Virus record (IMG/VR): IMGVR_UViG_2778261453_000012 | Direction: 5' to 3' (one strand) | DNA length: 4,898 nucleotides | From: a virus | Lineage: Duplodnaviria > Heunggongvirae > Uroviricota > Caudoviricetes | Shown: positions 1 to 4,898 of the stretch, in pieces | Numbering within the stretch: the stretch's first letter is position 1 | Layout: every line of letters starts with the position of its first letter | Translations under genes and position numbers: made by a program | Notes under the pieces: generated by a model | The model's database searches: none | Told to the model about the DNA's origin: nothing | What the model saw: the letters and a program-made list of their open reading frames with translations, nothing else

Positions 1-584
1 GATACTGCCTCAGGTAATGCGTCCACCACCTGATTGCAGACTGCCCACCAGGATAATTCAGCCAGCGATAATTCCCGCTCCTGCGTGCCATTCATTACAT
101 GGCGTATGACGTCAATCATCCAGGCTGTCAGATTTTGTTGAGTAAGTTGCTCAAGTGATTCGGAGGTCTGGTCGCGCAGCTGGTTGTCGCAGTGCCAGCA
201 CAACACCATTGCGCCAGCACCGTAACTGTGAATAACGGTTTCGCTGTGATGATAATCGCCGTGTGGCCACTGGCAGGATTTCACGTGACGTAATAACCAG
301 TCAGACAGTGCACCAGCGCCGCCAGCTGCACGAATCACCCGCTCATCGCTGAAAAATGGCAGCAGTGATTTATCTTCCGCCAGCGGCTGGCGAACAGTAG
401 GAACCGCTCCAGATGGCAGCGCCCGCATGTTTTTCGGTTCCGGCTCCACCAGCACCCTGCCGCGATGAAAAACTGGCAATGATTCACGACCGGGCTTAAG
501 GACCACCAGCCCGAGTTCCGGAACCAGAACAGGTCGAAGTAATACCCGCACATTACCTCCAGACGCGCTGACGGTAGCAGGCAT
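1..584 (-). CDS. Hypothetical protein, N-terminal 194 aa in window (3' end beyond left edge); contains a Cys/His cluster (C104, H108, H112, H113, C129, H131, C132), possibly Zn-binding/HNH-like; possibly the continuation of the 553..825 ORF after a frameshift
   Basis: Hand translation of the minus frame with codon at 582-584 (ATG): no TAA/TAG/TGA down to position 3. Begins MPATVSASGGNVRV..., includes ...RHVKSCQWPHGDYHHSETVIHSYGAGAMVLCWHCDNQ.... The frame is open upstream to a TGA at 636-638. Weak SD (GGA) before the ATG. Absent from the ORF track because there is no in-window stop. Confidence 0.45.
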   Translation of the reverse strand, partial: MPATVSASGGNVRVLLRPVLVPELGLVVLKPGRESLPVFHRGRVLVEPEPKNMRALPSGAVPTVRQPLAEDKSLLPFFSDERVIRAAGGAGALSDWLLRHVKSCQWPHGDYHHSETVIHSYGAGAMVLCWHCDNQLRDQTSESLEQLTQQNLTAWMIDVIRHVMNGTQERELSLAELSWWAVCNQVVDALPEAV

Positions 585-825
585 GTGTCCGTGGCAGATG
601 TGCACGAACAGGAAGATATACAGAAACGGTCCAGGTCAGACGATCAGCGTTCAGACTCCGCTCCACACGGACACCGCGACGCAGATACGCCTCTTGAAGC
701 ATATCTGCCTCATCGATCGTACAGAACAGATAGTGAAACCAGCCATACTGAGGCGCACGAAAACGCCTCCCCTGCTTAATTTCCGGGTCGGCTTCAGAAT
801 TGTGGGATTTTATGTGTTGTGTCAT
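553..825 (-). CDS. Hypothetical 90-aa protein, or the N-terminal part of a frameshifted larger gene that continues in the 1..584 frame
   Basis: ATG at 823-825 preceded by GGAG with 6-nt spacing (ccGGAGaatccgATG) and by a candidate promoter. Translation MTQHIKSHNSEADPEIKQGRRFRAPQYGWFHYLFCTIDEADMLQEAYLRRGVRV... is protein-like at the N-terminus. Confidence 0.45.
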   Translation of the reverse strand: MTQHIKSHNSEADPEIKQGRRFRAPQYGWFHYLFCTIDEADMLQEAYLRRGVRVERSLNADRLTWTVSVYLPVRAHLPRTHACYRQRVWR

Positions 826-874
826 CGGATTCTCCGGTGACAGCAGGTGTCAGTTGTTCAGGCTGACTGCGCGA

Positions 875-903: not shown

Positions 904-930
904 ACAGAAAACCCGTCAGTAAGACGGGCT
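899..930 (-). terminator. Rho-independent terminator downstream of the BOF-family gene
   Basis: Minus strand: CCCGTC-ttact-GACGGG (plus 912-928) followed immediately by TTTTCTGTTTGT. A 6-bp GC-rich stem with U-tract, 19 nt after the stop at 947. Confidence 0.6.
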
Positions 931-946
931 TAACAAGCAGGGGCGG

Positions 947-1291
947 TTACTTTAATAATTTCAGTGCCTTTACATCAACTTCAACACTGCTCAGGTCTTT
1001 ATCAATTTCACCCTCAATTCTTACTTTGTCTTTCGGAGAAACATTCTGCCCGGCCCATACGCTGTCATCAATATCCGTGACAATTGTCCCGCTATTGTCA
1101 CGAAACTCATAACGTTCATCACCCACTTTTTTAACGATGCTCCCTTCAAGGATAACCCATGCATCATCCTTCAGTTCTTTTGCCTGCGCTACTGTTGAAC
1201 GCTCTGCTTCTGGCCCCTGGAAACCACCCTGCTGTGCAAAAGCGCCAAAAGACACACCGGAAATAAGTGCTGCAATCAATACCTTTTTCAT
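947..1291 (-). CDS. YgiW/YdeI (BOF, bacterial OB-fold) family periplasmic protein, 114 aa, with N-terminal signal peptide
   Basis: MKKVLIAALISGVSFGAFA|QQGGF...: typical Sec signal with AxA cleavage site, then the QGGF start characteristic of mature BOF proteins, and a C-terminal motif ...DKVRIEGEIDKDLSSVEVDVKALKLLK. SD AGAGGA 7 nt before the ATG. Confidence 0.8.
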   Translation of the reverse strand: MKKVLIAALISGVSFGAFAQQGGFQGPEAERSTVAQAKELKDDAWVILEGSIVKKVGDERYEFRDNSGTIVTDIDDSVWAGQNVSPKDKVRIEGEIDKDLSSVEVDVKALKLLK

Positions 1292-1410: not shown

Positions 1411-1566
1411 TTACTTCTCAGATTCGTAGTCTACGAAGACAGCGACCTCCGTCTGACCGGTTCGGATTCGCACCTCGCAGAGGTCTTTCCTCGTTACCAG
1501 TGCCGTCACTATGACGGTTAAACAGATGACGATCAGGGCGATTAACATCGCCTTTTGCTGCTTCAT
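1411..1566 (-). CDS. hokD: Hok/Gef family type I toxin (51 aa small membrane toxin), closest from memory to HokD/RelF
   Basis: MKQQKAMLIALIVICLTVIVTALVTRKDLCEVRIRTGQTEVAVFVDYESEK: hydrophobic TM segment followed by the conserved TRKDLCEV.IR.G..EVA.F motif of Hok proteins. SD AAGGAG about 8 nt upstream of the ATG at 1566. Confidence 0.85.
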   Translation of the reverse strand: MKQQKAMLIALIVICLTVIVTALVTRKDLCEVRIRTGQTEVAVFVDYESEK

Positions 1567-1623
1567 AGCCTGCTTCTCCTTGCCTTTCGGCACGTAAGAG
1601 GCTAACCTACATGTGTTCAGCAT
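1411..1623 (-). CDS. Mok-like leader reading frame (70 aa), in-frame N-terminal extension of hok starting 19 codons upstream
   Basis: ATG at 1621-1623 with upstream AGG (ctgAGGctcaatccATG). Extension MLNTCRLASYVPKGKEKQA precedes the hok Met. No start codon exists in the alternative frame that is open across hok. Confidence 0.4.
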   Translation of the reverse strand: MLNTCRLASYVPKGKEKQAMKQQKAMLIALIVICLTVIVTALVTRKDLCEVRIRTGQTEVAVFVDYESEK

Positions 1624-1692
1624 GGATTGAGCCTCAGATTAATGTTAAGCGTCTTGCAGGACGCGTAATGTTAACTGGGGCTTTTCTCTATC
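1615..1692 (+). ncRNA. Candidate Sok-like antisense RNA (about 70-80 nt), antisense to the hok leader and mok start
   Basis: Plus-strand candidate promoter -35 TTGCCT (1580-1585), 17-nt spacer, -10 TAACCT (1603-1608). Downstream imperfect inverted repeat 1633-1680 (outer stem CCTCAG/CTGGGG, inner GCGTC-ttgcag-GACGC, flanked by 9-bp direct repeats TAATGTTAA) followed by CTTTTCTCT. Position and length match what is expected for Sok. The -10 is weak. Confidence 0.35.
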
Positions 1693-1770
1693 TGCCGTTG
1701 GTGTTCATGCCCGAGGCAGATAGCCTCAAGCACCCGCAGCAATTCTACTTAACTATCCTTTTCCCGCAAA
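1688..1770 (-). promoter_or_regulatory. hok promoter and 5' leader: -35 TTGCGG (1769..1764), 16-nt spacer, -10 TAGAAT (1747..1742), predicted TSS near 1735, tac-like 5' box (1735..1724), leader stem with 9-bp perfect inverted repeat (1688-1696 / 1715-1723)
   Basis: Elements read directly from the sequence. The predicted transcript 5' end GGGUGCUUGAGGCUAUCUGCC resembles my memory of the R1 hok mRNA 5' end (GGCGCUUGAGGCUUUCUGCC). Confidence 0.45.
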
Positions 1771-2662: not shown

Positions 2663-2761
2663 GATGTTCTGAGGGTGCAGGAATCCCTCCGGTTAAGGAT
2701 TTAATAAAAATCGTTTCTGATTTAAATCTTCAGTATTTAGTTGTTAGTTGGTTTATCGCCT

Positions 2762-3073
2762 TTATGCTTCAGCCTTATTTCGCAACCAGACACAAACCGG
2801 GCCATCTTCCGTATCATGAATGGAACCAATAAACCAGCCATCGCCCTCTGGTCGTTCCGGTTCCCATGCAGAAATATCAGCATCACACGCATCAAGGTCA
2901 GCACATCCTTCATCTCTGAAGCAGAGGACGTATTGAAGATTATTTTCCTCCATCCAGGCGTTAAACTCTTCCGTTGAAATATATTCCCGACCATCACAGA
3001 ATTTTTCATATTCAGGATGTGTCCAGTAGCCATATCCGTCACGAACTACCGGCATTTCTTTAATTTCACTCAC
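2762..3073 (-). CDS. Hypothetical acidic protein, 103 aa
   Basis: GTG start at 3071-3073 preceded by perfect SD (gcAGGAGGttaacaGTG); overlaps the upstream stop by 8 nt. Sequence VSEIKEMPVVRDGYGYWTHPEYEKFCDGREY... is D/E-rich. An internal ATG at 3053-3055 is an alternative start. Confidence 0.65.
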   Translation of the reverse strand: MSEIKEMPVVRDGYGYWTHPEYEKFCDGREYISTEEFNAWMEENNLQYVLCFRDEGCADLDACDADISAWEPERPEGDGWFIGSIHDTEDGPVCVWLRNKAEA

Positions 3074-4266: not shown

Positions 4267-4697
4267 TACACGCTCATGACATCAGACACGGTGACGATAA
4301 TCACGCTGCGCCCCTTCGCCATCAGCCGGTTACCCATCGCCGCTGCAAGGTGATTTTTCCCGGTGCCGGTTTTACCGCTGAACACAAAATTCGTGCACCC
4401 GGTCATCAGTTCGTCAGCTATGGATTTGGCCTGGCTCAGCGCGTATTTTTGCCCGTCGTTCTGCACCTGATAATTCGCAAACGAGCATTTGCTGTGCAGA
4501 GGCTGGATGCCCGAACGATTCAGGATTTTTTCCACCCGCAACTGGTGATTCTGGCGGTTAATCTCCTCGCTGCGTTTTCGTCCTTCAACAAGTTGCCATT
4601 CCCGCCACTCCTCCACCGTCCGGTACGGTGGAACCGACGCCTGTGGTGCAAGTCTGCGAATACGTTCAAGAACCCCGGCTGCCGCAATGTTTTTCAT
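4266..4697 (-). CDS. DnaC-family replicative helicase loader homologue, truncated: 143 aa covering the N-terminal region and Walker A only
   Basis: ...[73 protein letters not shown] aligns to E. coli DnaC (NCSFENY...[18 protein letters not shown]...GKSVLIITVADIMSAM) as I remember it. The ORF ends with TAG where DnaC continues about 100 more residues (Walker B DLLVIDE absent). SD AGGGGG upstream. Confidence 0.75.
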
Positions 4698-4703
4698 GCC
4701 ACA

Positions 4704-4898
4704 TCACCCCCTGAATCCCGGCGGAATTTCGGTATCCGGTTCAGAAATATGATTCACACAACGCTGGTTGTTCGTGCCGCTTACCGGGAGCAACCAGGGG
4801 TTTTCAAAATTCCGGTCCGGCCCAAAAAACGTCGTCGCTCGCTGAACAAATTCCGTTCCCGTTTTCCCGGTAGCCGCCAGGTATCTTGCGTAACGCCT
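4704..4898 (-). CDS. 3' end (C-terminal 64 aa) of an upstream replication-module gene, partial at the window edge
   Basis: Hand translation of the minus frame from 4898: RRYARYLAATGKTGTEFVQRATTFFGPDRNFENPWLLPVSGTNNQRCVNHISEPDTEIPPGFRG*, stop TGA at 4704-4706, 6 nt before the DnaC-like ATG. Function inferred only from position. Confidence 0.45.
   Translation of the reverse strand, partial: RRYARYLAATGKTGTEFVQRATTFFGPDRNFENPWLLPVSGTNNQRCVNHISEPDTEIPPGFRG

Follow-up and report, generated by a model that had tools for sequence, protein, structure and literature searches.

An apparent gene split in a lambdoid Escherichia coli prophage is best read as two tightly packed nin-region genes

Introduction

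The question raised by the left end of the DNA analysed here is how many genes the minus strand encodes around positions 553-640. Namely, in this whole stretch of 4,898 nucleotides (IMG/VR record IMGVR_UViG_2778261453_000012, a virus of the Caudoviricetes), which we refer to as the window, one open reading frame ends at position 553 while a second, already open over the end of the first, runs on to the left edge. A first-pass annotation, made from the letters alone, had left three readings standing: a gene broken by a frameshift, a programmed shift, or two overlapping genes. Its description of the frames holds. The first frame, credited there with a good ribosome binding site, runs from the ATG at 825-823 to the TAA at 555-553, encodes 90 amino acids and is preceded by a GGAG motif at 832..835 (minus strand) that, as read from the sequence, resembles a Shine-Dalgarno element and lies 6 nt 5' of the ATG. 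The second frame is open from the TGA at 638-636 to the left edge for 211 codons, the at least 194 codons given earlier having been counted from an ATG at 584. The two frames, put at about 80 nt of overlap, are both open over 635..553 of the minus strand, that is, over 83 nt. Finally, the open reading frame in the third frame (335..553, minus strand; 72 amino acids), dismissed as Trp/Cys-rich junk, does contain 6 Trp and 7 Cys, lies inside the second gene, and is annotated in none of the seven E. coli loci discussed below.

In what follows we argue that a lambdoid E. coli prophage here carries, with high probability, two separate genes packed closely together in its nin region, the second of which starts at the GTG at 551-549. 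As for the earlier wording of "two overlapping genes", both genes are real, but their coding regions do not overlap, since the TAA at 555-553 and the GTG at 551-549 are separated by one base.

Results

The locus and its gene order

At least 16 complete E. coli genomes, of serotypes O103, O145, O111, O157 and others, match positions 1-1300 of the window at 100% identity, and 498 records match at 99% or more. With so many independent assemblies in agreement, an assembly indel in the 553-640 region is unlikely. In one of the identical genomes, NZ_CP028112, the region belongs to a lambdoid prophage, of which it forms the nin/late-regulatory part; there, replication genes, DUF1627, several small open reading frames, DUF551 and Hok/Gef are followed by a YgiW/YdeI-family protein, a "hypothetical protein", DUF968, RusA, antiterminator Q and tRNAs. 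The first-pass annotation had placed the locus upstream of the antiterminator, and in the identical genome Q does follow, outside the window, past its left edge and beyond the RusA gene.

The PGAP annotation of NZ_CP028112 has two coding sequences here, 4476-4748, corresponding to window 825-553, and 4750-5799, corresponding to window 551 onward. What is more, RefSeq annotates the same arrangement, a stop codon, one base and a GTG, in seven E. coli loci, namely the identical one and six diverged ones, the latter being approximately 81-85% identical to the window in the DNA of the DUF968 part and 33-46% identical in the protein encoded by the small open reading frame. In other words, the two-gene layout at 553-551 is already known, as the RefSeq annotation has two genes.

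The small gene and its family

The small gene (553..825, minus strand; 90 amino acids; WP_000191872.1 in the identical locus) matches the phrog_1212 profile with an E-value of 1.5e-34, residues 26-90 aligning with profile positions 2-66 of 66. The match thus extends over practically the length of the family profile and ends exactly at residue 90, the last before the stop codon. Searches of Pfam and NCBIfam with the same protein matched no family. In the alignment with members from Escherichia, Salmonella, Cronobacter, Erwinia and Edwardsiella phages, the family is conserved to its final residue, with W29, F30, T36, A40, Y47, L58, D61, L71, P72 and W89 invariant; of these, L71, P72 and W89 lie within the region where both frames are open. 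When 5.8 billion proteins were searched with a profile, 281 matched, of which the best 120 were listed; together with a first single-sequence search, these yielded 126 relatives of 49-143 amino acids, none of which carries a DUF968 domain. The C-terminal sequence QQRIWR is found in 82 of the relatives retrieved, each representing one cluster.

The AlphaFold2 model of the small protein, computed from a 20-sequence alignment, has a mean pLDDT of 73.5. A core spanning residues 27-72, of beta-alpha-beta-beta topology, is confidently predicted (pLDDT above 90), and the N-terminus is disordered in the model. Foldseek comparison of this model with the PDB gave nothing at E <= 0.001, the best hit, at E 0.52, being among generic small alpha/beta folds. 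Given the slot upstream of YbcO or NinG that the family occupies in other phages, an identity with NinE or NinF was considered as well; it was rejected because there is no Pfam match at E <= 0.1 and because an Erwinia phage has a separate NinF.

Most relevant to the question of one gene or two is the company that this family keeps. Namely, homologues of the small gene stand directly upstream of NinG in Gifsy-2, Edwardsiella phage GF-2 and Klebsiella phage 5 LV-2017, directly upstream of YbcO (DUF1364) in mEp237 and phiES15, and directly upstream of a Dcm methylase in Erwinia phage Ehr59. Since the family adjoins differing downstream genes elsewhere, the small open reading frame is an independent gene.

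The DUF968/YdfU-like gene and its start

The second gene enters the window only with its 5' part (1..551, minus strand; 183 codons plus 2 nt from the GTG at 551-549; WP_001265236.1) and leaves it at the left edge. In the identical genome the protein is 349 amino acids long, the window holding residues 1-183 only. The first-pass annotation had guessed at a YdfU/DUF968-like identity, and the guess was a good one: in the identical locus, the complete protein matches Pfam PF06147 (DUF968) with 256 bits and an E-value of 2.3e-76 over residues 160-346, against a gathering score of 27.8 bits, although most of this domain falls outside the window. The match to the phrog_96 profile, "HNH endonuclease", is longer (E 9e-173), positions 1-333 of 334 covering residues 1-348 as counted from the GTG at 551. 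Several PHROG "HNH endonuclease" families match residues ~250-330, the HNH motif lying outside the window, and HNHc_6 (PF16784) scores 21.9 bits on the full-length protein, under its cutoff of 26.6 bits. In published descriptions, DUF968 combines an N-terminal portion resembling Orf with an HNH motif (PMC4118853), and YdfU and YbcO are classed together in group 7 of the His-Me finger superfamily, RusA and Q being typical of their surroundings (PMC5714182); the RusA and Q neighbours at the present locus match this published context. No tested activity was found for any close member of this protein's group. Among phages, the N-terminal half has distant relatives at approximately 30% identity in phage P1 (records M95666.1 and MH422554.1) and P1-like phages, Escherichia phage vB_EcoM-813R1 being among the hits, and one of these relatives is annotated as PdcB, and relatives at 26-33% identity in Vibrio phages.

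Could this gene start farther upstream and truly overlap the small one? The window does offer an ATG at 584-582 and a GTG at 605-603 in the DUF968 frame, which would make the two genes overlap by 11 codons (32 nt) or 18 codons (53 nt), respectively. An ATG is a stronger start codon than a GTG, and a start at ATG 584 would lengthen the protein by 11 residues. Nonetheless, several observations speak against either start. Neither is preceded by anything like a Shine-Dalgarno sequence, the DNA reading tgcacatctgccacggacac ahead of ATG 584 and ttctgtatatcttcctgttc ahead of GTG 605. ATG 584 is missing in all six diverged relatives, five of which have no in-frame start at all 5' of the conserved GTG. 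The phrog_96 profile, as noted above, begins at GTG 551, and PGAP chose the GTG in 7 of 7 loci, including K-12-like Qin prophages, in which the gene is ydfU. The homologues tell the same story. When the whole open frame, including its 28 upstream codons, was used as a tblastn query, close relatives alone aligned from query residue 16-23, nothing in phages aligned earlier than residue 16, and distant phages aligned from residue 47 or later, never in the extension; residue 47 of this query lies 18 residues past GTG 551. DNA similarity of the diverged loci to the window likewise fades approximately 12-25 nt 5' of the GTG. We have consequently rejected both alternative starts, which have no Shine-Dalgarno sequence ahead of them and are not conserved in relatives, and regard truly overlapping genes as improbable.

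The 83-nt stretch open in two frames

If the second gene starts at GTG 551, what is the stretch ahead of it? The upstream extension of the DUF968 frame consists of 28 stop-free codons (635..552) bounded by the TGA at 638-636 (552..638 in all, minus strand) and is non-coding in that frame. The pattern of substitutions identifies the frame that is under selection. Namely, among the six related E. coli loci, the final 28 codons of the small gene contain 17 variable columns, 13 of them at third positions of its own frame, which correspond to second positions in the DUF968 frame. For the small gene in its entirety, the synonymous to nonsynonymous codon differences stand at 184:164 in its own frame, as compared with 45:300 and 46:288 in the other two. 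The translation of the extension in the DUF968 frame, on the other hand, is in the window unrelated to that in the relatives except for its last few residues, and these are the ones lying on the conserved Shine-Dalgarno and start region. The coding frame across 635..553 is that of the small gene.

It remains to be asked whether 28 codons without a stop are in themselves surprising. In the +1 frame of 14 neighbouring genes, stop codons occur at a rate of 0.0598 per codon, giving a probability of 0.18 for 28 open codons, while shuffling the codons of the small gene gives 0.48; at least 28 open codons precede the annotated start in 2 of the 14 neighbouring genes. As such a run is within chance expectation (P ~0.18-0.48), the 83-nt overlap needs no special explanation: it is a mere lack of stops for 28 codons ahead of the true DUF968 start.

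A comparable case is found in Klebsiella phage 5 LV-2017, where the annotated NinG coding sequence (1917-2582 of the extracted locus) begins 28 codons ahead of the NinG profile and overlaps an unannotated phrog_1212-like open reading frame at ~1801-1992. It looks as if the NinG start had been called too far upstream there, over an extension like the stop-free one in the window.

Does the ribosome shift frame?

A programmed +1 (or -2) shift, either within 553..635 or at the AGG-TAA that ends the small gene, would yield a fusion of the small protein with the DUF968 protein, of ~440 amino acids in the case of a +1 shift at AGG-TAA. Some features of the junction could be taken to suggest it. The DUF968 frame is indeed +1 with respect to the small gene (825-551 = 274, which is 1 modulo 3); directly ahead of the small gene's stop stand a rare AGG codon and a GGAGG resembling a Shine-Dalgarno sequence, an arrangement that loosely recalls the +1 site of prfB; and the DUF968 frame is stop-free for 25 codons 5' of the GTG in the diverged loci as well. 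That said, the first-pass annotation had proposed looking for slippery heptamers at the junction, and a scan of 645..540 turned up no XXXYYYZ heptamer, no run of four or more identical bases and no instance of the +1 motifs sought (CTTTGA and CCCTGA, for example). A slip at a classical -1 site would take ribosomes into the junk frame, the DUF968 frame being +1. Re-pairing of the tRNA from AGG to GGT would, by our reasoning, be poor, and in prfB the Shine-Dalgarno element precedes the slip codon by 3 nt and does not sit on it.

The comparative evidence points the same way. The offset between the small gene and its downstream neighbour is not conserved: in GF-2, as in the window, it is +1, and in Gifsy-2, mEp237, phiES15 and Ehr59 it is -1/+2. 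Such variation agrees with initiation at an independent start and is at odds with recoding as a conserved event. Nor does the stop-free extension behave as one would expect of the inside of a fusion protein: it is not conserved as protein, it varies at second codon positions in the DUF968 reading, and its length is within the chance expectation given above. A programmed shift anywhere in this stretch is therefore very improbable in our judgement, and the +1 event at AGG-TAA in particular has a chance of the same very low order.

Is it a broken gene?

The remaining reading, that one ancestral gene, for a protein of at least 270 amino acids, was split by a one-base indel at ~585-635, or appears split through an error of sequencing or assembly, takes its appeal from the two frames being open together over 83 nt and from indels that do occur here in the databases. 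In particular, two singleton proteins carry them: P0117, in which the small gene is read into the DUF968 frame (...GGNVRVLLRSVPVPELG), and P0002, in which it is read into the third, junk frame. A further relative, P0006, has an internal out-of-frame stretch. All three represent clusters of one or two sequences each and are probably sequencing errors or sporadic mutations; P0117 and P0002 come from short contigs (~2 kb and 56 kb), as against the 82 cluster representatives that end in QQRIWR. Against a broken gene stand the separate conserved ends and starts of both families, the unrelated genes that follow the small one elsewhere, the retention of the two-gene layout in the diverged loci, and the selection on the small-gene frame up to its very stop; against an error stands the identical sequence in the independently assembled genomes. 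Finally, a homologue spanning the frame switch, which the first-pass annotation had suggested looking for, is not among the 126 relatives retrieved, none of which is an intact fusion. Each homologue matches just one of the two frames, and the two families begin and end independently, the very pattern that the first-pass annotation had named as speaking against a split gene. A pseudogene or an error thus has hardly any probability left, the least of the readings considered here.

Other features of the window

A scan of 400-1450 for promoters and terminators gave counts at chance level, its sole notable feature being a terminator-like hairpin with a T-run at 909..931 (minus strand), 3' of the YgiW/YdeI-family gene and 5' of the small one. 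As a pattern match it is weak, the terminator consensus scan having given this one site with 0.9 expected by chance. The YgiW/YdeI (NirD/YgiW/YdeI stress-tolerance, OB-fold) family gene itself (947..1291, minus strand) has a signal-peptide-like N-terminus and looks like cargo, set between hok and the nin genes in the slot that rem occupies in the Qin prophage of K-12. Farther upstream, 1411-1735 (minus strand) holds a hok/sok type I toxin-antitoxin locus, with the Hok/Gef coding sequence (1566..1411) inside a mok-like open reading frame (1623..1411) and a match to Rfam sok (RF01794) at 1735..1561 with 113.5 bits. If the window has a real frameshift, the place to look for it is 2762-3072 (minus strand), where PGAP annotates, at the corresponding 2229-2539 of the extracted locus of the identical genome, a "frameshifted" hypothetical-protein pseudogene, and where two minus-strand open reading frames overlap (2762..3073, 103 amino acids; 2737..3042, 101 amino acids).

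Discussion

The boundaries of the two genes, the frame that is coding where both are open, the independence of their families and the absence of shift signals are borne out by the observations. That said, three features do not sit easily with two genes and a start at GTG 551, namely the GTG start codon itself, the spacing of 4 nt between it and its Shine-Dalgarno sequence, and the presence of the in-frame ATG 584. In E. coli, a spacing of 4 nt between GGAGG and GTG is among the shortest that function well.

How, then, might the second gene be translated? Its GGAGG Shine-Dalgarno sequence (556..560, minus strand) lies within the small gene, whose last two sense codons, TGG AGG (Trp-Arg), supply it. 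The anatomy of a coupled pair, with adjacent stop and start codons and the Shine-Dalgarno sequence inside the upstream coding sequence, is present here in the form of TAA 555-553, one base and GTG 551-549. The junction, TCTGGAGGTAAyGTGCG, is conserved in the seven E. coli loci, and its equivalents, tGGGGGtga or tGGAGGtga, precede NinG or YbcO genes in other phages; the design is mirrored in five of them. A stop and a start one base apart, together with an embedded Shine-Dalgarno sequence that is conserved and mirrored elsewhere, point to translational coupling, and, judging from this anatomy alone, the DUF968 gene is probably coupled to the small one. Ribosomes finishing the small gene would then initiate at GTG 551, or else translation of the small gene would keep the embedded Shine-Dalgarno sequence accessible, so that newly recruited ribosomes would initiate there. 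The 635..553 stretch is translated solely in the frame of the small gene.

The double use of these codons extends over the family. The conserved terminal Trp-Arg/Gly-stop codons of phrog_1212 genes (tGGAGGtaa, tGGGGGtga, tGGAGGtga) serve as the Shine-Dalgarno sequence of the next gene as well, at 553-560 (minus strand) of the window and, in the extracted loci, at ~1995-2009 of L008 and L009, ~2040-2057 of L010 and ~1985-1999 of L013. In most loci examined, the phrog_1212 gene abuts a DUF968/YdfU, YbcO/DUF1364 or NinG gene, with anything from a 16-nt overlap to a 2-nt gap between them. One could speculate that the phrog_1212 protein is a dedicated coupled partner, be it a regulator, an inhibitor or a subunit, of the putative His-Me-finger nucleases of the nin region, although we hold this to be rather unlikely. 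Be that as it may, a family that stands consistently ahead of nin-region nuclease genes, with an embedded Shine-Dalgarno sequence, could guide a functional test of both proteins.

There is also a more general point for the reading of compact genomes. An open frame that runs on 5' of the real start of a gene, over the end of the preceding one, is expected by chance, and should not be taken to flag a frameshift unless accompanied by a slippery site or by a homologue that spans both frames.

How does the junction compare with known systems? Among recoded genes, the nearest comparison is prfB (RF2), which, like the window, has an SD-like element near the stop codon and a downstream frame at +1. 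Unlike prfB, however, the window is without a slip site of the CUU-UGA type, and its Shine-Dalgarno sequence coincides with the would-be P-site codon; again unlike prfB, no fused homologue was found among the 126 relatives retrieved and the frame relation is not conserved among relatives. The anatomy of the junction is also like that of translationally coupled operon pairs of phages and bacteria, with adjacent stop and start codons and the Shine-Dalgarno sequence within the upstream gene. As regards the second protein, its likeness is to PF06147 (DUF968), a family placed by published classifications in group 7 of the His-Me finger superfamily, the full-length protein of the identical locus matching both DUF968 and phrog_96.

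As a whole, the locus compares closely with the Qin prophage of K-12 and its order of rem, an unnamed 92-aa gene for a hypothetical protein, ydfU and ydfT/quuQ. The window differs from Qin in having a YgiW/YdeI-family gene upstream in place of rem and a RusA gene before Q downstream, and in that its small gene is a diverged allele, of 90 as opposed to 92 amino acids and with 33-46% protein identity. Past this gene the two converge: DNA identity of ~81-83% sets in ~12-20 nt 5' of the GTG, and the N-terminus of the DUF968 protein in the window, VRVLLRPVLVPELG..., is nearly identical to its Qin counterpart. In both, a small open reading frame ending in QQRIWR is followed by TAA, one base and the GTG of a 349-aa DUF968 protein, with the Q region next.
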